Virus record (IMG/VR): IMGVR_UViG_3300009408_000001
Location: 32,001 to 96,000 of that record
DNA length: 64,000 nt
DNA from: a virus
Direction: 5' to 3' (one strand)
Positions 4,093 to 56,525 of the stretch are shown in pieces (position 1 is the first letter of the stretch; each line of letters opens with the position of its first letter). A program made the position numbers and the translations under genes. The notes under the pieces were generated by a model. The model was not told where the DNA came from, searched no databases, and saw only the letters and a program-made list of their open reading frames with translations.

Positions 4093-4108
4093 ATTACCTT
4101 AACGATCA
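4093..4108 (+). promoter_or_regulatory. putative phage early promoter (ATTAC-N5-YGAKMA)
   Basis: CATATTAC CTTAA CGATCA; resembles the phiKZ early motif TATATTAC and recurs at seven other sites. Confidence 0.65.
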
Positions 4109-28467: not shown

Positions 28468-28508
28468 CCGGACTGTCTCTATTGGGCCCGAACCCGTTTC
28501 AAAACCGT

Positions 28509-28540
28509 ATTACCTTACTGATAACACGTCCGTGTTATTT
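28509..28540 (+). promoter_or_regulatory. putative early promoter plus leader hairpin (cassette B)
   Basis: ATTAC CTTAC TGATAACACGTCCGTGTTAT. Confidence 0.75.
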
Positions 28541-28560
28541 ATTCTAAGTGGAGCAGTGGT

Positions 28561-28836
28561 ATGGAAAAGGGTATTAACGTGGGGTTCGAGAAATTAATCG
28601 AAAGCTTCAGGGCAGAGACAGTCCAACTCGAGGACAAATGGCGTGCAGGAACACTGTACCGGCAACTTAAGTACCGTCGGTTAATGGGTTACTCCCGTCA
28701 CCATCGGTCCATTGTGGATGTGGCTAAAAGGGAAGATGAGTTAGAGGAGGCTCACATCCTGATGCTCGCCGAAAGGACACGCGAATTTCACAAATACCTG
28801 AAGGGGTTCGGATACTACGGTTTGTTTCTAGGATAA
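28561..28836 (+). CDS. 91-aa cassette protein, paralogue 1
   Basis: GGAG RBS; ungapped similarity to the next two genes. Confidence 0.85.
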   Translation: MEKGINVGFEKLIESFRAETVQLEDKWRAGTLYRQLKYRRLMGYSRHHRSIVDVAKREDELEEAHILMLAERTREFHKYLKGFGYYGLFLG

Positions 28837-28848
28837 ACCAACATAAGC

Positions 28849-28880
28849 AGGAGGCCCTTAACGGGGCCTCTTTCTTTTTG
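28849..28880 (+). terminator. cassette-type terminator
   Basis: GAGGCCC-TTAACG-GGGCCTC-T tract. Confidence 0.85.
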
Positions 28881-28906
28881 CCGTTTCAGCCATTATTAAA
28901 AACCAT

Positions 28907-28938
28907 ATTACCTTACTGATAACACATCCGTGTTATTT
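28907..28938 (+). promoter_or_regulatory. putative early promoter plus leader hairpin (cassette C)
   Basis: ATTAC CTTAC TGATAACACATCCGTGTTAT. Confidence 0.75.
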
Positions 28939-28962
28939 AACCAATTTGGAGATACAAAGATT

Positions 28963-29238
28963 ATGGAAACAATTACCGATGAGATGTTCCAGAAATTAAT
29001 AGAAAAATTCAGAGTAGTGACAGTCCAGATCGAGGAGACATACCGTGCAAACGCACTTGTACGGCAACGTAAGTGCCGTCGGATAGTTGGCAATCCAAGT
29101 ACTCCGCGTCTCGAGGAGGAGTTGGTTAAAATGGAAGATAGGGCATGTGAGAGACACATCACGTTACTAGCAGAAAGGACACGCAGGTTTCAAGACCACC
29201 TGAAGCGGCTCGGATACCGTGGGGTGTTTCTAGGATAG
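28963..29238 (+). CDS. 91-aa cassette protein, paralogue 2
   Basis: GGAG RBS before ATG 28963. Confidence 0.85.
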   Translation: METITDEMFQKLIEKFRVVTVQIEETYRANALVRQRKCRRIVGNPSTPRLEEELVKMEDRACERHITLLAERTRRFQDHLKRLGYRGVFLG

Positions 29239-29249
29239 GCAACATAAGC

Positions 29250-29282
29250 AGGAGGCCCTTAACGGGGCCTCTTGTTTCTTTG
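29250..29282 (+). terminator. cassette-type terminator
   Basis: Identical hairpin to 28849. Confidence 0.85.
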
Positions 29283-29315
29283 CCGTTAATGGAATCAAGG
29301 ATTCTGAAATACCAC

Positions 29316-29347
29316 ATTACCTTACTGATAACACGTCCGTGTTATTT
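29316..29347 (+). promoter_or_regulatory. putative early promoter plus leader hairpin (cassette D)
   Basis: ATTAC CTTAC TGATAACACGTCCGTGTTAT. Confidence 0.75.
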
Positions 29348-29371
29348 AATCCATTTGGAGATACAAAGACT

Positions 29372-29647
29372 ATGGCAAAAATTACCGATGAGATGTTCCA
29401 GAAATTAATCGAAGAGCACCGGGAACTAACCACACAGCTCGAGAAAGCCTACCACACTGGTGTGGCAAAACGTAAGAACGAGGCCAACCTGGCCTTTGGT
29501 GACGCAATTAGCCCTCGTTTCGAGGAAAAAATGGCTAAACTTGAGGCGAAGATCCAAGAGGAGCACATCCTGTTCCTCGCCGAAAAGACACTCGAATTTA
29601 ACAAAGTACTTAAGAAGTACGGCTACACGGGGGTGTTTCTAAGATAG
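29372..29647 (+). CDS. 91-aa cassette protein, paralogue 3
   Basis: GGAG RBS before ATG 29372. Confidence 0.85.
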   Translation: MAKITDEMFQKLIEEHRELTTQLEKAYHTGVAKRKNEANLAFGDAISPRFEEKMAKLEAKIQEEHILFLAEKTLEFNKVLKKYGYTGVFLR

Positions 29648-29661
29648 TAAGTAACATAAGC

Positions 29662-29694
29662 AGGAGGCCCTTAACGGGGCCTCTTTCTTTTTTT
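29662..29694 (+). terminator. cassette-type terminator
   Basis: Identical hairpin to 28849. Confidence 0.85.
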
Positions 29695-29737
29695 GCCGTA
29701 TTTACTAAAACTGGTTTCAATGATCCTGAAACATTAG

Positions 29738-29753
29738 ATTACCTTAGCGAGCA
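29738..29753 (+). promoter_or_regulatory. putative early promoter of the Csx16-like gene
   Basis: ATTAC CTTAG CGAGCA. Confidence 0.6.
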
Positions 29754-29846
29754 TAGACAATATTGTTTAGATCTATCATGGTACACAACCGTTAAGCGCA
29801 ACGGTTGTTTACCCGGGCAATATCGCCCAACCCTTAGGAGATTGAC

Positions 29847-30137
29847 ATGTTTAAAACTTACTTCATCTCGCGCCATGCCGGTGCACAGGACTGGGCCTTG
29901 GCCCAGGGTATTGAGGCCGAAATGGTCTCACACTTCGACCCATCTGTCGTTAAAGATGGTGACATTGTGATGGGCACATTGCCCGTCCAAATGGTGGCGG
30001 CTGTAGTCGCTTCCGGTGCTCGGTACTTGCACCTCACCATGTCCATCCCAGCAGAAATGCGTGGAAAAGAAATCAGTTCTTCCATGATGAACGAAATGGG
30101 GGCATCTCTGCAAGAGTTTACTGTTAAGGCCATTTAG
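29847..30137 (+). CDS. csx16: Csx16-family (VVA1548-like) protein, putative cyclic oligoadenylate ring nuclease
   Basis: TYFISRHAGAQDW, GDIVMGTLPV, GARYLHL...P.EMRGKEIS, GASLQEF match the remembered Csx16 consensus over the full 96 aa; AGGAG RBS. Confidence 0.88.
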   Translation: MFKTYFISRHAGAQDWALAQGIEAEMVSHFDPSVVKDGDIVMGTLPVQMVAAVVASGARYLHLTMSIPAEMRGKEISSSMMNEMGASLQEFTVKAI

Positions 30138-30145
30138 GTCTTAGC

Positions 30146-30185
30146 AGTTCCCAGTGCGCGCTTGCGCTGGGGCTCTTTCTTTTTT
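30146..30185 (+). terminator. intrinsic terminator
   Basis: GC-rich stem AGTTCCCAGTGC...GCGCTGGGGCT followed by a T tract. Confidence 0.7.
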
Positions 30186-30211: not shown

Positions 30212-30227
30212 ATTACATAAGTGAGCA
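30212..30227 (+). promoter_or_regulatory. putative early promoter
   Basis: CATATTAC ATAAG TGAGCA. Confidence 0.6.
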
Positions 30228-30267
30228 TGAGCAATTGACTTATGTATTAATTATAACGGAGTACAAC

Positions 30268-30501
30268 ATGTTGTATGTACAAAGACTGTGGGCGATATGT
30301 GTGATTGTCCACTCCCAGAAGACCCTGAGACAGGACTTCACGAAAACGACCTGGTTCTCCATAGCCAGTGGTTCAATCAAGGGCCCCAGAGGCATTGCCC
30401 TGTTCAGCACCTTCCCTGTAGTATCGGGGATCTTTGTATCGTTCATGGTAGTTTGGGCTATCCTGCGTCCCATCTTTAAACGAATAGGTAAGAAAATATG
30501 A
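30268..30501 (+). CDS. small membrane protein, hypothetical
   Basis: GGAG RBS before ATG 30268; C-terminal hydrophobic helix. Confidence 0.6.
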   Translation: MLYVQRLWAICVIVHSQKTLRQDFTKTTWFSIASGSIKGPRGIALFSTFPVVSGIFVSFMVVWAILRPIFKRIGKKI

Positions 30502-30782
30502 AAGACGTATATCTAGTAATCGTAACATTGGTCTTGTTGGGTATTGCTCAGTTCGCACAGGCGAACAACGTAATTGTAGTTGCAGTACAATGTTCGTCCA
30601 ACGTGGTGGTCATTTCCATCAATGATAAGAAACAAACCACGGCGGTAACCATACCGTACAACCACCCTAACTACAGGGCAATACAAATGCGGGTGGATTC
30701 TCTTGCCGTGTGGGCAAATGGGAGCCGTGCTGTTGAACTGTGTCGGGTCTTCTCTGGAATGGGAGCACCTGGTGGTGTTTAA
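30498..30782 (+). CDS. small exported/signal-peptide protein, hypothetical
   Basis: ATGA overlap; N-terminal hydrophobic segment ending AQA. Confidence 0.6.
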   Translation: MKDVYLVIVTLVLLGIAQFAQANNVIVVAVQCSSNVVVISINDKKQTTAVTIPYNHPNYRAIQMRVDSLAVWANGSRAVELCRVFSGMGAPGGV

Positions 30783-30909
30783 GTGGTTACTGAGTTCGAT
30801 TGCCACACTGATGCTCTTAACCATACTAGGGTTATATTTCATTGTACCACACATGGTACCTACCGAGGTATATTACATGCAACCGGGAGCAATCGAACTC
30901 GACAAATAA
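30772..30909 (+). CDS. small membrane protein, hypothetical
   Basis: GGAG RBS before GTG; hydrophobic helix; ends at a terminator. Confidence 0.4.
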   Translation: MVFKWLLSSIATLMLLTILGLYFIVPHMVPTEVYYMQPGAIELDK

Positions 30910-44852: not shown

Positions 44853-47800
44853 CTATGACTTAAAGTCCACAACCGATTTAAACACCGTAGTGTCTGTGTT
44901 CGGCAGCGCTTTCTTTATGCTGTCATTGCTGTTACCAGAGGAATCACCCTTCACAACGATCGTAGTATCTTTACTGGCAATAGTCTCCAGTTTTTCGATC
45001 ATACGCTCTTGGTTGTTGATCATAGTATTTCTCTGTTCTTCTGCGGCGATACTGAGTGCGATCTGCTGTTTCATCGCACCAACCGTATCATCCCGAGTTC
45101 TAGACGCTAGGTCCATGTGGCGAAGTGCCAACCCATCGGATGCACTTAAGCGTTTCCGGGGAGTTAAACTGACTTCAGCTTCTGGACGACGACGAGTTAC
45201 AGGTACCGGTGTAAATTTAACTGACTCTTGTCTACGGGATGCACGGTACGCCATTTCCTTAGCGTCTTGTTCATCCCGCATCGTTTGCAGTTTACTGGCA
45301 ACCGTAATTCCTTCAGGGGGCTTGGACACAGGCTCCTTAACCGTTACCCTTTCTTCTGGAGGAAGTTGCTTAGCATTTACCCTAGCCACCATGGCGTCAT
45401 GTTCTTCCGATGCAAGCTCATTCCGCGTGGCAGGTGGGGTTGGTTGGTCATCACTAATGAACGTCATGGCCTCCCTAGCAGACAGTTTTGAAAACTGTCT
45501 CATTGTTAGCGGGTGTTTCCCGGACCGTTTCCGGATAGAGTTAACCGCTGTCAATGCCCGTTCTAACCTACTACCCTCTACATTCAGATTCCTTTCTAAA
45601 TCCTTAGAGCGATCGTAAGGTAGGGTACTTGTCCTAGGTTTCTCCGTAGGTGGGGGAGTAACCGAGGAACCGTACTTATTCGCCATCATGGTGTTACCCA
45701 TTGATTTTTTCTCTTCCATAAGCGCACCCACTTCAGTGGCGGACATCGATGCAACCTGCATCATTGACATACCGGGTTTCCCCAGATCAGCCAGGGTGTT
45801 TGACACCATGGTGTACTTACGCTGCATCACACCAATCTCAAGTTGAGACAACCCTTCGGTTGCCTTCTCAATCTCGGCAGCGGTAACTTGGTGCCTAAGT
45901 GAAGTAGGTCGCGTCACAGACGGTGTAACCCGTGTCGTAGGTTGCACAGGAGTAACCCCCGGCATTGTAGGTGCCGTGCCGTACTTATTCGCCATCATGG
46001 TGTTACCTAGGGCCTTTTTCTCTGCAACAAGTGCAGACACGGCCTCCGGTTTCATATCCATGACTTCTTGCATCGTAATCCCAGGTCGACCCAGGTCGGA
46101 TAACATGGCAGATACCATGGTGTACTTACGCTGCATCACGCCAATCTCAACCGGTGTCTTTCCTTCTGACATGGTTTCAATTTCGTCTTTTGTAACGACA
46201 TGTCGTTTTGCAACCACCTTTTCAGGAACAGGAGCAGTAGGAGAACTTCCTTTATCCGATGCAGGGCTGGCAGAATCAGTCAACTTCTGTAGCTTAGCAC
46301 TGGGTGGGGATTGCTTTGCAGCAAGGGTGTCTACCCCTTCGAGGCCATCCGACTGCCCCTCTACCTTACTCCCCTTGGCGATTTCCTCAGCGGTCTTTAT
46401 CTCATTAACCGCTGCTGTTTTGTCCACGGATCTAAAACCGGAAACCGGATCAGTAGTGGGCCCCCACTGTTTAAGGTTCTTCCGCCATTCAAAATGGAGG
46501 TGGTTACCGTCACTAAGTCCTGTGTTTCCAACGGTACCGAGCAACTGGCCCTGGAGGACGGTATCCCCTATATGTAACCCACGTGCGCGTGAGTTCATGT
46601 GGGCATACCGGGTAGATGTCCCATCTGCATGCCTCAGGTAAACGACATTGCCATAACTAGGTGAATAATGCGAACGCATGACCCTACCATCCATAGCAGC
46701 GACGACGGGTGTTCCCTTGGGTGCGGCTATATCTATTCCCTTGTGGAAAGACCGTTCCCCCCCAATGGGGTGTTTACGCCAACCGTACGGAGAACTGATT
46801 CTTCCTTCAGCCGGTATCATCATCTTAGACTTGCGTCCTAGGTCATCCCCACCACCGTATATTACAGAGGCACCAACCAATGCACCCGCAACCAAACCGA
46901 TGGCCTTTTTCTTTCCCTTCTTTTCAGTAGGGGGATTAGGGTCCCGTTCGTTTTCCTTCCTGGCTTTCTCTTCGGCATCGGTTCGTTTCTTATCGTTCCT
47001 AGACTTGTTCTTATCCTCACCAGGTAGTCCTGGTACGAAATCGAAGTCATCTAATTCAGAGTCACTCATAAGGGTTTCTAGCATGCGTCTCGTGTAGTCA
47101 AGTACAATGTCTCGCATGCTGTAAACGGGCTTACCATTGAACGGTGTTGCAAGTACCGCGTATGGGTTGAATCCCCGTTTGATGTCCTTCTCAGTTATCT
47201 GAACCCGATTGATGAACATCGCCTGGTCCTTATCGTCCATCTCATCATCGATGTCAAGTATGTCTACCCCATCGTCTAAACGATACGCTGCTTGGATATG
47301 AGTGTAGAATACGGGAATGAACCGTTTCCGGAACCACGTGTTCCACTCACGACCATGTGCGCGATCGTCCAGAAGCCTATTGAACGCTTCATGGTGCTCT
47401 TCATAGAAGTACGCCGGTTCTTCGTTCAGGGTAGGGGACCCGTTCTTATCCAGATCAATCTCTGACCTTACCTGGTCTTCGAGGGCTCGGATTGCGTAGA
47501 TGAAGTCTTCGTCCTTGAGACTCACCCCGTATTGCAAGAACCTAAGCCCTTCGACAGGTTGTACGTCTGAACCATAGGTTAAATGTTTCGTCAGTTTGTA
47601 CGCGCCCCAGGCGGCCACGCCCACAACCGCAAGGACACCCAGTCCCAACATCAGCGTCCCTACACCCAGTGCCGCAGCAGCCGTGGCTGCTGTGGTGGCA
47701 ACGCTAGTGGCAACGCTAGTGGCTGCCACGGTTGCTGCTACCCTTGCTACCGTTTGCATAACTTTACCTCCAACAGCCTTAGCTGTATCGATCACAACAT

Positions 47801-50800
47801 CCTTAGCCTTATTGACCACTCTACCACCAACATCCATAGCTTTATTGACCACTGCATCCTTAGCTCGGTTGGTATATTCACCAGCCTTCCCGGCGGCCCA
47901 TCCTACTGCGCCCCCTACGCTAGGGATGCTACCCAACGTGTTGGCACGTCGTAAGTTGCGTCGGTTTTGTTCATCTTCCTCCTGTTCTTGATCTTGCCAT
48001 GAACCATCCCGGTCACCGTCGCCATCTGCATCATTCGCGTTGGGACCAGCCGTACTCGCTTCTTGCATCTTAACAAGGTCACTCAACAGTTCAGTCTGAG
48101 TGGACATGTCTTCGCGTTCGTCTTCACCTAACTCTTGGTTCTGTTCGATGAGTGACGTTAACTCGCCAATGGTTCCAAGTAACAGGGCGTTTTCCGGACC
48201 ACTGGATACGCCTGGATTAGAACCCGGTCCATCAGTACCAGTCGTAGTAGGAGTCCCCTGCATCTCTTTCAGATTACTCAGGAGGTTCTCCCTGGACTCC
48301 AGTAACTCTACCTCAGAACTGGGGGTGTTGCGTATGAGTTCCTCTAACTCGGCAATAGATGCTCGCAGTTCTGGAGTGTGTGGCTGTGCGGTAGCTGGTT
48401 CTGGGTTAAGTAAGCGATATTCCTCTTCCGTTAAACCAGCATCGTTTGCACCGGAGGTGCCACTGACGTTGATAGATGTAAGTCCGGATAACCTATTCCT
48501 AATGCGGTCCATACGACTTCCACCGGAGAAGTCAGCATTTGGAACAAATGTTCGACCTGCCACGTCCTCTGTTCCAGGTGTAATAATCTCCGGTCCCACA
48601 TTATCTGAAGGAGTAGGAGGAGTATCCACCTGTTCTTCCACAGCTGCAAGTTCAAGTGCGACGATGTCTTCTTCTGTCAACCCAGCCGCATTAGCACTGG
48701 CGGTGTCAAATGAAGTGGCGTCCCTTAACCTACGGCGCAACCGTTCTAACCGGGTAGTAGTGTAATCAGAGTTCGGTTGGAATACCCGTGGTTCATCGAG
48801 TGGTGGTTCCGAAACCTCTTCTATTCCTGGGCTGGTGGAATCCGAAGTGGGTACATCCAATAGTGCCTCCATACCCGGAAACGGTGTGTTAGCTGCCGCT
48901 TCTGCTTCTGCTAGAGCAACACGAAGTTCCTCAGGCATACCGGTTACCGTTTCTGGTGGAGTTGGACCTTCTTCCATCGCCTGCGCTATCAGAAGATCGT
49001 TCCTTTCGGAAACACTGAGTTCCGACGTACCCACTTCCTGGACCATGGTGTCCGGGCTCGGTGGGTTAACGATTCCCTCTTGGGTGGCAGATACCACTAC
49101 AGGTACTTCCGCCCCAGTGGATCCCTCCCTCATCAGCTCTTCCATCTTAGCATCGTTGATCTGAGCTAAGGTAAGCGGAGTATCTGGGGAGTTGGGAGTA
49201 ATTCCCTCCATGAGATCGGATACCGCTTCTGAATCGGCCCGCTGTGGAACACGGGATGGACCGATGACAGGTGCATCGGTACCAGTACTGTTTCCATCCA
49301 TCAGCTCTTCCATCTTAGCATCGTTGATCTGAGCTAAGGTAAGCGGAGTATCTGGCAGTATTTCTGTTGGCGGTTTTCTTTTCTTGGGGATCGTCAATTC
49401 CAAGGCTTCCATCGCCCCAGAATAATCTTCCGCCTTCCATAGGGCAATTGCCTTCTTAAATACGTCGTCCTTAAGATCGACAGTATCATCCCATGTGAGA
49501 GGGGAACTCCCCTTATCAATGCGCATCCTCAGTTGAACCAAGAGTTCACTCTTCAAAGTGGGGTCCACAAGCTCTGATTCTTCCGTAGTGGTTCCCGGTA
49601 GTTGTACCTCCTCGACAGTATCATCGGGTTCCAACGGGTTGTGTTCCTGTAGTGGAACTGGAGCTAACGTACGACCTGGGGTTTCGTCAACCGGTGACTC
49701 TCCCATGAGTCTGGTGATTTCCAAGTCGTTAACCTGTACGGGTGTCATCTCCACCTTAGAGGACACTTCCTGTTTTTCACCCGGTTGAACTAAGGACACG
49801 GGTACCCGATCGGCACTATTCAAACTCGCTGCCATGAGCGATAACATGTCATCATCATGCCTTTGTGCGAGTTCACGAGGAGTCCCCGGTGACTCCTCTT
49901 CCCCACGGTCTGCTGGTGGGGTTTCTACACTAACGGTATCCTTCCCATCTACAACACGGTCCACTTCAGAATGGACCTGGGTTATAGTTGGTACGGAAGG
50001 GATCCCCGTTGGTGCTTCTTCCATCATAGCGGCGATCTTAGCATCGTTGATCTGAGATAAGGTAAGCGGAGCATCTGGTGCCGCACCTTCCACCTGTACT
50101 ACAGTGGGTTTCACAGGGATGTGTTCCACTGGGACAGGTGTTTCTTCCGTGGTGACCGATGGAGATGCAACCACAGTCGGTTGGGAAACCGGTGCAGGTG
50201 GAGCCTCTTCAGGTTCATCTTCCATCATAGCGGCGATCTTAGCATCGTTGATCTGAGATAAGGTAAGTGTCGTCCCAGGTGTGATGTCGTCCTGTGCGAG
50301 TACTGTGGTCGGTTTAACACTGTCTGTTGTCAGGGTGGTTGGACTAGGTGCGATTGAAAGCGCATCCTTCACTGTTTCCGGTACCACAGGGGCAACGGGG
50401 GTAGTCGGGATAACCACTGGAGAACTACCCGGCAATGGAGCAGGAGTTGCAGGTGCTGGAGTAACCGCCTGTTTTACGCCTTCTGGTTTTGACTCCGTTC
50501 CGGTTAACATTTCCATTGCCAGTGAAACATTCCCTTCCTTGAGTGCAATGGATGCCAGTTCTACAGTGTCACTTACATCGGCGGTGGCTGTCTTAACCAC
50601 CTTACCAATACTGCTGTCTGCAACCTTACCTTTGAGCTCCTTGGCTTTCTTAACCACGGTGCTTTCCGAAATGGTCTTTCCAGCAGTCTCCAGGGCAGAA
50701 CCTACCTCAGAACCCACTTTACTTTCCTTAGCAGACTTAGCAGCGTACTCTGCTGCTTCCTTCATGAACTCTTTAGCAAGCGCATGATCTCCCTCGGCCA

Positions 50801-53800
50801 TGGCTTCCCTAGCCATCTCCAGTGAAGCTGCGGTGTTTTCCTTAACATCCTGTATCCGAATGTAAGTATCTGAGGCCATAATGGTTTCGAGTGTCTCTTC
50901 CTTGAGTTTCTTTGTGTGGGTCACAATGTCCTTAACCGTTTCGGATTCCATGAGTTCTTCTGCTTTAGAGGCTGCGGTCTTAGCCACCTCCTTCGCTTTC
51001 TGACCCAGTGCTGAATCGGACACATCCGCAGCCAAGTCCGATGCCACGTCCACTGCTGAACCCACTGCCTTACCAACCGCAGAGTTACCAACCGCTTTAC
51101 CCACGTCAGATTCGGCTATTTCCTGGCCAACTAACTTAGCCCCATCTGACAAGATGGTACCCACTTCAGCGTAGTTCCCTTTACGAGCCGAGTCGATTGC
51201 CCACTCTGCACTGGTTCCCGCTACTTTCGCAATGTTCGTCGCACGTTTAACCGCGTCAGAGTTTGCGACATCATCCAGTACTTCTGTGGCGTTGGCGACA
51301 ACCGTACTGTGCTTTATGTCTTCCTTAAGTTGCGTCGCTTTCTTTGCGGTGGCCTTGTACGCATCCGTACTCTTAACCGTCTTCTCTACTTGTGCGTACA
51401 CCTTAGCCAGTTCAGACTTGGTCACCTCATCGGTAGCATCCGCCATACCCTGTTTAAGGATAGTCAGTGCTTCTTCCTTGTTACCCTTCTTATACGCCTC
51501 GTAACCCCACTCTAAACTGGTCTTACCAATCTCCGAGATGTTCTTAACACGGGTTACGAAATCAGAACTGGTAATGGTATCAGAAAGGTCTGTCGCTGCG
51601 GTTTTGACTTTCTTAACCGCTTTACTTTCCGATACCTCGGTTGCAAGCTTACCAGTAGCCTTGTACGCTTTGGTCTTGGCTACCTTAGTTTTAACATCCT
51701 TTAAGACACGGGCCAGTTCAGACTTGGTCACATCATCTCTAGCATCCTCCATACCCCGTTTAAGGATCTCGAGTGCTTCATCGGTATTCCCTTTCTTGTA
51801 TGCCTCGTAACCCCACTCTAAACTGGTCCTACCAGTCTCAGAGATGTTCTTAACACGGGTTACGAAATCAGAACTGGTAATGGTACTTACCGTGTCTTTT
51901 GCCATCTGCTTTGCCGACTGTGCTACCTTGCTGTCGGCTACAGCGGTGGCAGTAGAGGATGCGGACTTATACGCCTTACTTGACTTGATGTCCTTTTCCA
52001 GTTCCTTAACTGCTTTAGCGAGTTCAGACTTGGTAACCTGATCAGACGCATCAGACATACCACGTTTAAGGATAGTCAATGCTTCTTCTTTGTTACCAGC
52101 TTCCATTGCCTCATATGCCCAGCCTACCGTAGTCATCCCGATCTCAGATAGGTTAGATACCCTGGTCATCGCGTCTTTCAACGTGGTGCTTTCTACAACA
52201 CTGTCTTTCAAGGTAGTTGCTTTCTCTACTAAGGAGTTAGCAATCTTACTTTCCGTGACGGTGTTCTTCGCAGAATTAAAGAGAGACCCGAGTTTATCAA
52301 TCGCGTTCTCTTTAGGCGCACCCGGTGTAGCAGGGATTACCATTACAGCTGGAGCAGGTGGTGCATCGGGGTCTACCGGCATTGGTTTCCCTTCTGCATC
52401 CAACTGAGGTGCCGCAGGGGCGGCCATTGTCATACCCGCAGGTAAGGTTAAACTCACCGTCGGAGCACTCGTAGAGAACTCCATGATCCGTGTAAGGATC
52501 TTTTTAAGCACTCCAGTCTGTTCATCGATGTGCGGAACAGCGTCGGCTGACATGTAACCGGTACCCACAGAGTCCTTCGACTTCAGCCCCCGGAGTCCTG
52601 CGGCCCCAGCCCCCCTTGTTGCTGAGAAAATACCACGGTTCAGTTTCACAGTGGTTTTGGCCAGCCCCTTGGCAATCGTACTTCCCATGGAAAAGGCCTT
52701 ACCGATCGCTTTCCCGGAGTACCCGGTTAATGCGCGTAGTAATCCACCAGAACCCAACGTTACACCGTTCTTATCAACCAGTCCTTGTTTGATATCGTCA
52801 ACCGTTAAAACGATGTTCTCACCTTCATAGACGTCGCCGTTTATGTCAGTGATTGCTTTTATAGGGCGACCGTCTTTGTCAGTGTACCTACCTGCCAACA
52901 TAAGACGCGACAATAGCCGAGGTGTGCTTTCACCATCAACATACACGTCACGCCGTTTCAGAGATCGACTGGCCGTGTTAAGCAGCCACTTACCAGCACC
53001 ATACGCGCCTTTAATGATTGCTGTCTGTACGCCAAAGACACCACTGACTGCACGGGTAACCGGAGAGAGAAGATCAGAGATAGACTTTCCTCCCTTCTCT
53101 ACCAAACCAGTTTCGATATCGTCTGCTGTTAGGATCACGTTTCCAGTTGCGTTTACAACCGGACCCTTGATGTCCTTAAGTGACTTAATCGGATCACCTG
53201 ACTCTTCATCGAAGTACTTACCCGATTTCATGCCGCGTGCGGTTAAGACCGGTTCAGAATCACCCTTAATGTAAATGTCATCAGTGAAGTAACTGGTAAC
53301 GCCACGGGTTACGGTTTTAACACCCCCTCCGAGGACACTGGCTGCTGCTCCTGCAACTTTACCCATTCCTTTGTAGTAACTACCGAGTAACCCCGTTAAT
53401 GTCCCTACGCCGGATTTCATGGTTCCAAAAACACCAGACGCTAAAGCACCTAATTTAACGCCTCCGCTACCACCTCCAGAAACAACACCTTCCGCAATGG
53501 ACTGAAGGAGTAGGTGTGTGGTTCGTGAGTTGCCATCGATGGATTCCACCACCGAACGGAACCCCGGATCCAAGTCGGAGTATCCTTCGAAAATATCCGC
53601 TGTACTGAAACCACTCGACAGGTGTTCCTTGGCTTTCTCTAAGGCAGTTAACTCTTCCGCTGACTTAGGTGACTCGTCTTCGACTTCCCTAGGTATGGGT
53701 GCTGTTTCAAGTAATGCAGCGGCCCGCTCCAATAGGTCTGAGGTATTGGTTAGTGACGCTGTGGTTGATTCTACCACAACCGCCTCGGTTTCCTCCACTG

Positions 53801-56525
53801 CACTCGGAGTATCCCCGTACTGTAACGCTATCTCTCTGTCATTTCTTTCAGCGGGGGATAACCCTCGTCTGATTCTACCCCATACTCCTTCTCCCTGTTC
53901 AGGTGTTGGTGGAACTGGATCCCCGGATGGAGAAGGGGGTTGAGATGACTCGCTCGCATCACCAGATGGAGAAGTTGGGGTTGGGGTTGGTGGTACCTCT
54001 GCTGGAGTTGGAGTTGGTGACGAAGGATTGGGTTCAGACCTACCGGATAACCAGTTGTCTATTCTACCGAATAGACCGGGTGGAGGTGGGGGTTCCACGT
54101 CGTCCGCATCTGATTCAGAACGGTGTGCATCTGGATCCTCTTCTGTTTCTTCGGCACGTCTCGCACCACCGAAGAAACCAAACAACCGACTGACTACACT
54201 TGTGTCTTCCTCGACTGCGGCTTCTGGTGGAGGTTGTGGAAGTATACGACCATCGTCCTCAATGTGAGCGTACCCTTCCGGACGTGGACCACGGAATCTA
54301 GCACGGTCACGGATATCCCGTTCACCTGCAATGGCACCCATGTGATTCGAAGCGTCTGTCCCTTCTGCGATGTTGGAACCCAGTCTCATGTCGTTCCATG
54401 CTTCGGCGGATATTGCAGAAGACCCGTCCTCCTTATAGGTCAGAAGGCCAAGTCGTTCGAGTGCTTCCCTTTGTCCGTTGTAATGCAGCGATGATGTAAC
54501 CTTATCTGCATCCAGGCTACGGGCCCGCATCCGTTTAAACTTCTTCTGGATCTCCTGCATGTGGCGTCCGTCACGATCGGCGTTAACCGCGTTTAACTTA
54601 CCACTGATCTCCTCACCAATCTCGGCACCGTACTTCTTGGTATAGAAGTCTTCATCGGAAAAGTCACTCACCGCAAACCCAGTACGTTTATCACGGACCA
54701 ACATCATCCGTTCTGCCAGTGCTTCGCGGGCTTCATCAGACAACGTACGGTCTTTATCAAGTTCGTCTACGGCATCGTAGGCTGCACGTTTCTTATGGAC
54801 AACGTCTTCATCAGATACCATCTTCTGCGCGAGAAGGTTGTCATTCTCCTCGGTGGTGATAAATGCTTCTTTCTGAGTAGAATAGACGATTCGATCACCC
54901 GACTCCCCGGCGATCTTAGCAACGGTTTGCAAGATACGGGAGAGGTACCCTGGAATGATCTCGTTGATACTGCGATGGGTTATCGTGTCGAATGACGTAG
55001 CGGTGGATAGGTTGTCTTCCAACTTACCTCCCATTGATAGGTCATCGGAATACGACGGGGCAACTTCCTTAAGGAACTCACCAGCCGCGTTTACCATCTT
55101 TCCAAATGCACCGGGTGTAGAAACTTCCACATCGTCATCATCACCGGGATTGGATGCCAGGTCGCGGGCTTTAGCTCGGGCAGATACTCCGTCGGTTACG
55201 CGTTTGCCAACCCGGGTATCCCCCATTCCAAATGCGTCTACGAACCAGGATATTGCTTTGTCCTTTTTCTTTCCGACATTGGAAGCCATGTTATTTGCAC
55301 CGGCCACCAAGTCCTGGTAGCCCTGCATTTCGGTAACGTCGCCACCCTCTTCTACAAAGGCTTGAAGTGCCGCTGCTTTGTTACCACTGTGGTATCGCAA
55401 CAGGTCATTTAACCTCCCGACGGATTTATTCTTAGCAAAGAACGAACCGAGTTTACGGGCGGCTCTCTCACCGAGTTTACCAGACGCGTATTCTACGGCT
55501 GCACCACCTGCCATTTGACCTGCGCTTGGTCCTCCATCATCATCCCCACTCATTTGTTCAGCCATGTCTGCCGCGCCCTCTATCCCGGAGGATAAAGTTT
55601 CGGCAAAGTCCATGACAACATCTTTAACATTGTTTTTCAGTTCGGAGGTGTACTTAGATGTAAACCGACCAATGCCTTCACTCATATTACCCAACATGCC
55701 ATCTTGCATAATCTCGCCAAGTCGCTCAGTGGCCTTATACTTAACGGTATCAGGTAATCCTGTGTTGTGCTGTATGTTCTGAAGGTGACTAATGTTGGTT
55801 TCGAAGAAGGGCTTTGACACCCCGAGTAAATCCCGCAGTGTGAAGTAAGTGCGATGTTGTAACTCTAATGACTTTCTTTGGTAGTTAACAAGGATGCTAT
55901 CCTGGTACCCTACCAACCTACCAATAGAAACCGCGATCTCTTTATCAACCGCGATTGTCTGGGTATGTCTCAGGTCAGAAGAGTGCTCGGAGGCCTCATC
56001 CCGTTTAACGGTATAATCATCCCTGACGGCATCAACCTCCCTTTCCTGAGTAAAGATCTCAGAAAGGGATGCTTGGATTGCGGATTCATCTGGGTCAACG
56101 TAATCTCTGGAGTAAGAGGTATCTTCTGCAAAGTCCTTTATCCTAGAGGCGATGCCTTCTGGTAGGATCTTCTCGATTACAGACTCTGTACTCCGTAGTG
56201 CGGACTTCATCGAGTCAACAGCGGGCTCTAAAGCCTTTTCGGCGGAATCGTATATCTCCTCGCCTGCTGAAGCGATTTCATCTATGTCATCTAGAGCACC
56301 AGCGTATCCTTTAGGGAGTACGTTTTCTCTGATGGCTCGTCCTGCTGCTTGTGCGGAAGAGGCAGACAAGGCTGTCTCTAATGCACCAGCCTTAACTTGT
56401 CCGGCAATGCTTCGGTCTGATTCGGCGGGGCCATCCGAAAGCCCCTCCATATCTGGGCCATCGCCAAAGTCATCGTCCATGTCGCTCATAAACTCATCTG
56501 GATCAAAATCTAGGTCGTCAGACAT
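44853..56525 (-). CDS. tail tape-measure/cell-puncturing protein (phiKZ gp181-like) with M23 peptidase domain
   Basis: 3890 aa; divergent from vRNAP beta' as in phiKZ; M23 motifs HKGID, YAHM, HLHFE. Confidence 0.88.
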   Translation of the reverse strand: MSDDLDFDPDEFMSDMDDDFGDGPDMEGLSDGPAESDRSIAGQVKAGALETALSASSAQAAGRAIRENVLPKGYAGALDDIDEIASAGEEIYDSAEKALEPAVDSMKSALRSTESVIEKILPEGIASRIKDFAEDTSYSRDYVDPDESAIQASLSEIFTQEREVDAVRDDYTVKRDEASEHSSDLRHTQTIAVDKEIAVSIGRLVGYQDSILVNYQRKSLELQHRTYFTLRDLLGVSKPFFETNISHLQNIQHNTGLPDTVKYKATERLGEIMQDGMLGNMSEGIGRFTSKYTSELKNNVKDVVMDFAETLSSGIEGAADMAEQMSGDDDGGPSAGQMAGGAAVEYASGKLGERAARKLGSFFAKNKSVGRLNDLLRYHSGNKAAALQAFVEEGGDVTEMQGYQDLVAGANNMASNVGKKKDKAISWFVDAFGMGDTRVGKRVTDGVSARAKARDLASNPGDDDDVEVSTPGAFGKMVNAAGEFLKEVAPSYSDDLSMGGKLEDNLSTATSFDTITHRSINEIIPGYLSRILQTVAKIAGESGDRIVYSTQKEAFITTEENDNLLAQKMVSDEDVVHKKRAAYDAVDELDKDRTLSDEAREALAERMMLVRDKRTGFAVSDFSDEDFYTKKYGAEIGEEISGKLNAVNADRDGRHMQEIQKKFKRMRARSLDADKVTSSLHYNGQREALERLGLLTYKEDGSSAISAEAWNDMRLGSNIAEGTDASNHMGAIAGERDIRDRARFRGPRPEGYAHIEDDGRILPQPPPEAAVEEDTSVVSRLFGFFGGARRAEETEEDPDAHRSESDADDVEPPPPPGLFGRIDNWLSGRSEPNPSSPTPTPAEVPPTPTPTSPSGDASESSQPPSPSGDPVPPTPEQGEGVWGRIRRGLSPAERNDREIALQYGDTPSAVEETEAVVVESTTASLTNTSDLLERAAALLETAPIPREVEDESPKSAEELTALEKAKEHLSSGFSTADIFEGYSDLDPGFRSVVESIDGNSRTTHLLLQSIAEGVVSGGGSGGVKLGALASGVFGTMKSGVGTLTGLLGSYYKGMGKVAGAAASVLGGGVKTVTRGVTSYFTDDIYIKGDSEPVLTARGMKSGKYFDEESGDPIKSLKDIKGPVVNATGNVILTADDIETGLVEKGGKSISDLLSPVTRAVSGVFGVQTAIIKGAYGAGKWLLNTASRSLKRRDVYVDGESTPRLLSRLMLAGRYTDKDGRPIKAITDINGDVYEGENIVLTVDDIKQGLVDKNGVTLGSGGLLRALTGYSGKAIGKAFSMGSTIAKGLAKTTVKLNRGIFSATRGAGAAGLRGLKSKDSVGTGYMSADAVPHIDEQTGVLKKILTRIMEFSTSAPTVSLTLPAGMTMAAPAAPQLDAEGKPMPVDPDAPPAPAVMVIPATPGAPKENAIDKLGSLFNSAKNTVTESKIANSLVEKATTLKDSVVESTTLKDAMTRVSNLSEIGMTTVGWAYEAMEAGNKEEALTILKRGMSDASDQVTKSELAKAVKELEKDIKSSKAYKSASSTATAVADSKVAQSAKQMAKDTVSTITSSDFVTRVKNISETGRTSLEWGYEAYKKGNTDEALEILKRGMEDARDDVTKSELARVLKDVKTKVAKTKAYKATGKLATEVSESKAVKKVKTAATDLSDTITSSDFVTRVKNISEIGKTSLEWGYEAYKKGNKEEALTILKQGMADATDEVTKSELAKVYAQVEKTVKSTDAYKATAKKATQLKEDIKHSTVVANATEVLDDVANSDAVKRATNIAKVAGTSAEWAIDSARKGNYAEVGTILSDGAKLVGQEIAESDVGKAVGNSAVGKAVGSAVDVASDLAADVSDSALGQKAKEVAKTAASKAEELMESETVKDIVTHTKKLKEETLETIMASDTYIRIQDVKENTAASLEMAREAMAEGDHALAKEFMKEAAEYAAKSAKESKVGSEVGSALETAGKTISESTVVKKAKELKGKVADSSIGKVVKTATADVSDTVELASIALKEGNVSLAMEMLTGTESKPEGVKQAVTPAPATPAPLPGSSPVVIPTTPVAPVVPETVKDALSIAPSPTTLTTDSVKPTTVLAQDDITPGTTLTLSQINDAKIAAMMEDEPEEAPPAPVSQPTVVASPSVTTEETPVPVEHIPVKPTVVQVEGAAPDAPLTLSQINDAKIAAMMEEAPTGIPSVPTITQVHSEVDRVVDGKDTVSVETPPADRGEEESPGTPRELAQRHDDDMLSLMAASLNSADRVPVSLVQPGEKQEVSSKVEMTPVQVNDLEITRLMGESPVDETPGRTLAPVPLQEHNPLEPDDTVEEVQLPGTTTEESELVDPTLKSELLVQLRMRIDKGSSPLTWDDTVDLKDDVFKKAIALWKAEDYSGAMEALELTIPKKRKPPTEILPDTPLTLAQINDAKMEELMDGNSTGTDAPVIGPSRVPQRADSEAVSDLMEGITPNSPDTPLTLAQINDAKMEELMREGSTGAEVPVVVSATQEGIVNPPSPDTMVQEVGTSELSVSERNDLLIAQAMEEGPTPPETVTGMPEELRVALAEAEAAANTPFPGMEALLDVPTSDSTSPGIEEVSEPPLDEPRVFQPNSDYTTTRLERLRRRLRDATSFDTASANAAGLTEEDIVALELAAVEEQVDTPPTPSDNVGPEIITPGTEDVAGRTFVPNADFSGGSRMDRIRNRLSGLTSINVSGTSGANDAGLTEEEYRLLNPEPATAQPHTPELRASIAELEELIRNTPSSEVELLESRENLLSNLKEMQGTPTTTGTDGPGSNPGVSSGPENALLLGTIGELTSLIEQNQELGEDEREDMSTQTELLSDLVKMQEASTAGPNANDADGDGDRDGSWQDQEQEEDEQNRRNLRRANTLGSIPSVGGAVGWAAGKAGEYTNRAKDAVVNKAMDVGGRVVNKAKDVVIDTAKAVGGKVMQTVARVAATVAATSVATSVATTAATAAAALGVGTLMLGLGVLAVVGVAAWGAYKLTKHLTYGSDVQPVEGLRFLQYGVSLKDEDFIYAIRALEDQVRSEIDLDKNGSPTLNEEPAYFYEEHHEAFNRLLDDRAHGREWNTWFRKRFIPVFYTHIQAAYRLDDGVDILDIDDEMDDKDQAMFINRVQITEKDIKRGFNPYAVLATPFNGKPVYSMRDIVLDYTRRMLETLMSDSELDDFDFVPGLPGEDKNKSRNDKKRTDAEEKARKENERDPNPPTEKKGKKKAIGLVAGALVGASVIYGGGDDLGRKSKMMIPAEGRISSPYGWRKHPIGGERSFHKGIDIAAPKGTPVVAAMDGRVMRSHYSPSYGNVVYLRHADGTSTRYAHMNSRARGLHIGDTVLQGQLLGTVGNTGLSDGNHLHFEWRKNLKQWGPTTDPVSGFRSVDKTAAVNEIKTAEEIAKGSKVEGQSDGLEGVDTLAAKQSPPSAKLQKLTDSASPASDKGSSPTAPVPEKVVAKRHVVTKDEIETMSEGKTPVEIGVMQRKYTMVSAMLSDLGRPGITMQEVMDMKPEAVSALVAEKKALGNTMMANKYGTAPTMPGVTPVQPTTRVTPSVTRPTSLRHQVTAAEIEKATEGLSQLEIGVMQRKYTMVSNTLADLGKPGMSMMQVASMSATEVGALMEEKKSMGNTMMANKYGSSVTPPPTEKPRTSTLPYDRSKDLERNLNVEGSRLERALTAVNSIRKRSGKHPLTMRQFSKLSAREAMTFISDDQPTPPATRNELASEEHDAMVARVNAKQLPPEERVTVKEPVSKPPEGITVASKLQTMRDEQDAKEMAYRASRRQESVKFTPVPVTRRRPEAEVSLTPRKRLSASDGLALRHMDLASRTRDDTVGAMKQQIALSIAAEEQRNTMINNQERMIEKLETIASKDTTIVVKGDSSGNSNDSIKKALPNTDTTVFKSVVDFKS
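45671..46145 (-). repeat. two-copy 309-bp-period repeat in the tape measure gene
   Basis: EIGVMQRKYTMVS...GNTMMANKYG twice; DNA anchors at 45671/45980 and 45805/46114. Confidence 0.85.
46484..46815 (-). other. peptidase M23 (peptidoglycan endopeptidase) domain within the tape measure protein
   Basis: HxxxD (HKGID) and HxH (HLHF) zinc ligands are intact. Confidence 0.92.
49147..50270 (-). repeat. four near-identical LTL(S/A)QINDAK(I/M)..M motifs in the tape measure gene
   Basis: TTAGCATCGTTGATCTGAG recurs near 49147, 49316, 50038, 50238. Confidence 0.85.
51400..52160 (-). repeat. three-copy 306-bp-period (102 aa) repeat in the tape measure gene
   Basis: TTCAGACTTGGT at 51411, 51717, 52023; RV.N.SE.G.T...W.YEA...GN..EAL.ILK.GM.DA.D.VTKSELA. 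Confidence 0.88.

Follow-up and report, generated by a model that had tools for sequence, protein, structure and literature searches.

A full-length, stand-alone member of the Csx16 family is encoded by a metagenomic phage whose gene content points to a phiKZ-like, nucleus-forming jumbo phage, and the protein is likely to be a cytoplasmic ring nuclease, made early in infection, that would degrade cA4 and thereby oppose type III CRISPR immunity. The source is IMGVR_UViG_3300009408_000001, a linear metagenomic record of 197,530 bp with an estimated completeness of 71%. The window analysed is the 64,000-nt stretch at bases 32001–96000 of this record, and positions refer to the window unless they are given as genome positions. 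The csx16 open reading frame occupies 29847–30137 on the + strand, begins with ATG and comprises 96 codons and a stop; the frame stays open for three further codons upstream.

The csx16 product matches the Pfam family PF09652 (Cas_VVA1548) over profile positions 1–90 of 91 with an E value of 8.5e-30 and 103.2 bits (cut-off 25 bits), and the NCBIfam model for Csx16, TIGR02620, with 93.6 bits (cut-off 46.35 bits). Four PADLOC Csx16 models match with E values of 1e-27 to 1e-32 (3e-32 for one of them), and a PHROG profile search found no matching family. The first-pass annotation had assigned the 96-aa protein to Csx16 from its residue pattern and had named TIGR02620 and Cas_VVA1548 as the models to search; with both matched far above their curated cut-offs, over the full length in the case of PF09652, and with the PADLOC matches and the invariant residues in place, the assignment is confirmed. 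The motifs on which it was based, SRHAGA (residues 8–13), GDIVMGTLP (38–46), GARYLHL (57–63) and RGKE (72–75), coincide with columns that are invariant or nearly so in an alignment of 30 family sequences. These columns correspond to R9, H10, G12, A13, W16, H29, G38, D39, G43, L45, P46, G57, Y60, L63, R72, G73, A86 and L88, and the phage protein retains the family residue at all 10 invariant and all 8 near-invariant positions. The SRHxGA, GDxVxGTLP, GARYxHL and RG elements make up the presumed cOA-binding face, the residues of which are all present. Judged by its sequence, the csx16 product is a full-length, stand-alone Csx16 family member.

An AlphaFold2 model of the phage protein, calculated from the 30-sequence alignment, has a mean pLDDT of 96.9. 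It contains strands at residues 4–7, 25–27, 40–43, 59–64 and 87–91, with helices between and flanking them, which is the same topology as reported for Csx16 by Hoikkala et al. (PMC12409355). The predicted structure is a confident Csx16-type fold, a five-stranded derived Rossmann or CARF-like arrangement. Structure searches of the PDB with this model returned generic Rossmann-like matches together with weak matches to ring nucleases, and such searches alone do not identify the fold as that of a ring nuclease. A family-profile search of PDB sequences found no solved Csx16 structure.

The window includes genes for the phiKZ-type split RNA polymerase subunits, represented by beta-type subunits that match phrog_2986 (E value 2.6e-166) and phrog_3148, as well as genes for virion proteins, RNase H and UvsX. 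Vibrio jumbo phages are the closest cultured relatives, with approximately 42% identity in one RNA polymerase subunit. A block of genes for a DUF7194 protein, a virion protein, RNase H and UvsX is syntenic with Vibrio phage BONAISHI, but the adjoining cassette region is not. Megablast found no DNA-level relative of the csx16 region among cultured phages, and single-protein queries of IMG/VR found no close relative of csx16 or of the virion protein encoded next to it. A single open reading frame of 3890 aa is present at 44853–56525 on the – strand.

The first-pass annotation had inferred the nucleus-forming lifestyle from a window that lacks chimallin. The inference is now backed by sequence since the record encodes both chimallin and PhuZ outside the window. 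The chimallin homologue is a 647-aa open reading frame at genome positions 135390–137333 that matches phrog_4795 with an E value of 8.8e-33 over profile positions 96–672 of 677, and it shares 24% identity with the protein annotated as nuclear shell protein in Ralstonia phage RP12. It is regarded as a divergent member because phiKZ gp54, used as a query, and the narrow Pfam family PF25677 found no match to it. PhuZ tubulin is encoded by a 356-aa open reading frame at genome positions 127465–128535 (phrog_4733, E value 1.9e-52; Pfam Tubulin at 18 bits only), directly 3' of which there is a second open reading frame of 354 aa. Assignment of the record to a phiKZ-like nucleus-forming jumbo phage is supported by this predicted gene set. 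Searches of the whole 197.5-kb record found no CRISPR array, tRNA, Cas10 of either type or Card1; the lack of cas genes and of an array originally noted for the window thus extends to the entire record with respect to Cas10 and arrays. AcrIII-1 (DUF1874, PF08960) is likewise unmatched in the genome; as originally stated, Csx16 and AcrIII-1 are separate families.

The first-pass annotation had further described the gene as having its own promoter, ribosome-binding site and terminator, and an AGGAG sequence, two flanking terminators and a recurring promoter-like module were indeed found (Table 1). The upstream terminator consists of a hairpin at 29662–29685, a stem-loop of the form AGGAGGCCC-TTAA-CGGGGCCTCTT, followed by a T-run, and is near-identical to those at 28849 and 29250, giving three copies in the region. 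This putative terminator isolates csx16 from transcription upstream. On the other side, the next promoter-like module begins at 30212, 3' of the csx16 terminator.

Table 1. Predicted features of the csx16 cassette (window positions).
Feature	Position	Strand	Basis
Upstream terminator of the preceding cassette	29662..29695	+	Terminator scan and repeat family D6
Promoter-like module ATCCTGAAACATTAGATTACCTTA (core ATTACCTTA, 29738–29746)	29723..29746	+	Motif counts
5' leader with two predicted hairpins	29754..29808	+	ViennaRNA fold
Shine-Dalgarno sequence AGGAG, 6 nt 5' of the ATG	29836..29840	+	Sequence
csx16 terminator, TCCCAGTGCGCGCTTGCGCTGGGG and CTCTTTCTTTTTTG, hairpin at 30149–30172	30149..30185	+	Terminator scan

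The core of the module occurs 7 times in the window, as compared with an expected 0.53. In the complete record, a relaxed form of the core has 23 matches on the + strand, approximately 19 of which belong to an extended module of about 45 nt that consists of AAGAACCAYATTACCTTA and then a GATAACAC...GTGTTATT hairpin; all copies are on the + strand and have an open reading frame within 23–110 nt. The copies in the window are at 4093, 10029, 28509, 28907, 29316, 29738 and 30212, and the module often follows directly after a terminator. The recurring module is probably an early promoter of the phage combined with a leader element. According to a review of jumbo-phage RNA polymerases, each phage that encodes them has a conserved AT-rich motif of about 10 nt 5' of its presumed early operons, and transcript mapping, in every case in which it was carried out, confirmed the motif as the early promoter (PMC7598289). 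An early-promoter reading of the csx16 module is reasonable given this conserved motif, and from the recurrence of the module we infer that it would serve the virion RNA polymerase.

Two properties set the csx16 cassette apart from most others and count against early expression. At one position of its core, G replaces the T of most copies (GATTACC versus TATTACC); the copy as a whole resembles those at genome positions 98207 and 160862. The leader is long and structured, approximately 100 nt as compared with 23–76 nt in most other cassettes, with a predicted folding energy of -28.8 kcal/mol for 29747–29850 (ViennaRNA). Its first hairpin (29754–29769) has a counterpart at the equivalent position in other copies of the module. 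The second, a perfect 9-bp stem formed by ACAACCGTT and AACGGTTGT at 29785–29808, lies beyond the usual leader hairpin and may be a gene-specific regulatory structure.

Upstream of csx16, at 28490–29700, there are three tandem single-gene cassettes (open reading frames 28561–28836, 28930–29238 and 29339–29647), each with its own copy of the promoter-like module, a hairpin in the leader and a terminator nearly the same as in the other two. Their products are paralogues with 38–50% mutual identity and no Pfam match, and a weak fourth relative was seen at genome positions 184997–185146. The cassettes look like a diversifying family of early genes, which is possibly also involved in counter-defence. 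The cassette that follows csx16 (30212–30909) includes small open reading frames, one of which (30498–30782) encodes a 94-aa protein that has no Pfam match and a hydrophobic N-terminus resembling a signal peptide.

An exhaustive phmmer search recovered 1021 Csx16 family members with E values of 0.001 or lower, including stand-alone proteins, tandem double proteins and many fusions of 400–600 aa. Smaller alignments were used for the locus searches, the 30-sequence alignment being too diverse as a query. The closest relative (P0006, L005:148–597; 62% identity) is encoded on a phage-like JGI contig of 6.4 kb together with small open reading frames and a fragment of a T7-type RNA polymerase. This protein has a C-terminal extension of approximately 55 aa that is absent from other Csx16 proteins. 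In total, six IMG/VR contigs (L008–L013) carry Csx16: on three related contigs the proteins are 58%, 54% and 49% identical to the phage protein, and on three further contigs a more distant Csx16 is encoded with a large terminase gene within 3–5 kb. The viral status of L008–L010 rests on the IMG/VR classification, a Rha/antirepressor-like neighbour in L009 and a lack of cas or cellular genes; searches of these three records for chimallin and for two terminase families found no match. By tblastn, Csx16 is the sole gene common to the viral or phage-like relative loci and the phage record. Among 50,697 records of cultured phages, Csx16 was found in Methanobacterium virus Drs3 only (ORF3), and in none of the cultured jumbo phages.

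Cellular homologues, which lie in CRISPR contexts, are at most 53% identical to the phage protein. The best 80 of the 280 confirmed cellular homologues belong almost entirely to Pseudomonadota, chiefly to Thiotrichales, Chromatiaceae, Competibacteraceae and Lysobacteraceae. A homologue of Card1/Can2 flanks at least 22 of these 80 closest loci, often as the adjacent gene, in agreement with the published association of Can1-2 with ring nucleases. One Lysobacteraceae genome has Cas1, then a gap free of open reading frames, Card1 and Csx16, in this order.

A comparison of phage and CRISPR-locus Csx16 in a tree had been proposed with the original annotation. The phage protein pairs with that of the JGI contig (SH-aLRT 88) amid Pseudomonadota sequences, and the viral label changes at least three times on well-supported branches, but trees of a 96-aa protein are poorly resolved overall; one of them had 168 rows, and the cellular rows were picked by similarity to the phage protein. 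The changes of label point to several apparently independent acquisitions of Csx16 by viruses, and an origin in Pseudomonadota is probable. Tandem double-Csx16 proteins of 203–230 aa were among the best matches (P0004, P0005, P0007–P0009, P0012 and P0016). The halves of these proteins belong to separate clades, a pattern suggestive of an old duplication and a resulting single-chain pseudo-dimer.

The first-pass annotation had proposed that the phage captured an off-switch from its host. This holds in part at most: the nearest relatives are viral or phage-like (62, 58, 54 and 49% identity, as compared with at most 53% for cellular proteins). Moreover, codon usage is that of the phage: the CAI of csx16 is 0.786, as compared with 0.772 ± 0.018 for 78 long phage open reading frames. 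The GC content of the gene is 50.9% versus 48.3% for the genome. With both the closest relatives and the codon usage phage-like, there is no indication of direct recent capture from a host.

A Csx16 protein assayed in vitro degraded cA4 completely at a 100-fold excess of substrate and left cA3 and cA6 intact; the specificity of Csx16 rests on this one assayed family member (PMC12409355). The original view of Csx16 as a cOA ring nuclease is strengthened by this specific cleavage of cA4. In the genomes surveyed, characterised ring nucleases, Csx16 included, are accompanied by cA4-dependent effectors only. Type III is the form of CRISPR immunity to which nucleus-forming jumbo phages are reported to remain exposed; it senses their exported mRNA, and the outcome is abortive infection (10.1101/2022.06.20.496707). 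Ring nucleases of viruses serve as anti-CRISPRs, and csx16 is a candidate for such a role because neither Cas10 nor an array nor Card1 is found in the phage record. We consider it likely that csx16 would be transcribed early from the phage-specific promoter and that its product, probably a homodimer, would stay in the cytoplasm. There it would cleave the cA4 produced by the Cas10 of the host. With cA4 removed, cA4-dependent effectors of the Card1/Can2 or Csx1 type would not be switched on, and abortive infection would be avoided. Counting against an anti-CRISPR role is the best-studied type III case directed at a nucleus-forming phage, which signals via cA3 and NucC (10.1101/2022.06.20.496707), because a cA4-specific enzyme would not counter cA3.

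Two other activities of the protein have to be weighed against cA4 cleavage. Binding of cA4 with slow turnover or none, by which the protein would act as a sponge or dampener, is unlikely. Sponges that phages direct at other cyclic nucleotides are a well-known precedent. The assayed Csx16, however, cleaved cA4 with multiple turnover when the substrate was in 100-fold excess (PMC12409355), and the phage protein keeps all the invariant residues of the family. In addition, the signal output of type III systems has been argued to be too high for sponging to succeed, and the authors of that work note that phages are without Csx15, which also speaks against a sponge (PMC13148439).

It is improbable that the protein is an active phosphodiesterase with a different target, namely cA3 or cA6, a non-CRISPR CARF or SAVED effector (for example of the CBASS type) or a function in competition between phages. 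Such a target would fit the known case of a type III system that uses cA3 against a nucleus-forming phage. It also draws on the assay of just one family member, on the broad-spectrum ring nucleases exemplified by Crn4 (PMC12830947), and on the own groupings, albeit weakly supported, that viral Csx16 sequences form. [quoted passage not shown] Cleavage of cA4 is the activity preferred here for the phage Csx16.

It is highly improbable that csx16 is a passenger without function or an artefact, even though the source is an incomplete (71%) metagenomic contig and no close phage relative was found in which conservation of the gene could be seen. The reading frame is intact and retains every conserved residue. 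With phage genes on both sides, it lies approximately 30 kb from the ends of the window and further (at least 30 kb) from either end of the contig. The promoter-like module before it is one that recurs in the phage, the terminator after it is of the type usual for the phage, and its codon usage is phage-typical. Host contamination and chimeric assembly were rejected on account of the regulatory modules, the codon usage and the position of the gene.

The phage protein resembles the Csx16 described by Hoikkala et al. 2025 (PMC12409355) in full-length family membership, stand-alone size (~95–100 aa), conserved residues and predicted fold. That enzyme converts cA4 to linear products, and the chemistry of the phage copy is presumed to be alike. 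The two differ in context, as cellular Csx16 is located in a type III locus, whereas the phage copy lies outside any cas or array context and behind a promoter-like module of the phage. Hence, while Csx16 of a type III locus resets the signal, that of the phage would presumably sabotage it. AcrIII-1 (Crn2; DUF1874, PF08960), which is unrelated to Csx16 at the level of sequence family, is, from the work of Athukoralage et al. in 2020, reportedly a viral ring nuclease proven as an anti-CRISPR in vivo; the phage Csx16 would act in a similar manner but is a candidate only. Crn4 (Chi et al. 2025, PMC12830947) is a CRISPR-associated ring nuclease with orthologues on phages and plasmids, and these mobile copies have been proposed as anti-CRISPRs, but its fold is unrelated to that of Csx16 and its cOA specificity is broad.

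The novelty of a phage-borne Csx16 as such had been overrated at first, given that its occurrence in 2 of 28,114 phage genomes is already published (PMC12409355). The other phage-borne examples, comprising these two genomes, Drs3 ORF3 and L008–L013, are stand-alone or fused, are not accompanied by cas genes and have the same proposed role. They share no other gene with the phage record, and chimallin is absent from those that were checked. Unlike them, csx16 in the phage studied here is part of a phiKZ-like, early-type cassette. Among the papers listed by a literature search, there was no report of a ring nuclease in a jumbo phage or of a means by which a nucleus-forming phage counters type III immunity.

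The principle of a viral ring nuclease and the activity of Csx16 have both been published previously, and the gain is therefore one of breadth and context. It is an evenly balanced proposition that nucleus-forming phages, shielded as they are from defences that target DNA, close the one remaining gap in their protection from CRISPR by means of an early cA4 ring nuclease, that csx16 encodes the first candidate anti-type III factor of a chimallin phage, and that it represents a Csx16 lineage circulating among unrelated phages rather than one freshly obtained from hosts. If true, a small and easily assayed protein would be added to the anti-CRISPRs that degrade cOA. The added interest lies in a phage lifestyle that matches the defence the protein would neutralise: nucleus-forming phages would be combating type III immunity at the level of its signalling as well, and cA4-based systems would be predicted to exert a real selective pressure on them.
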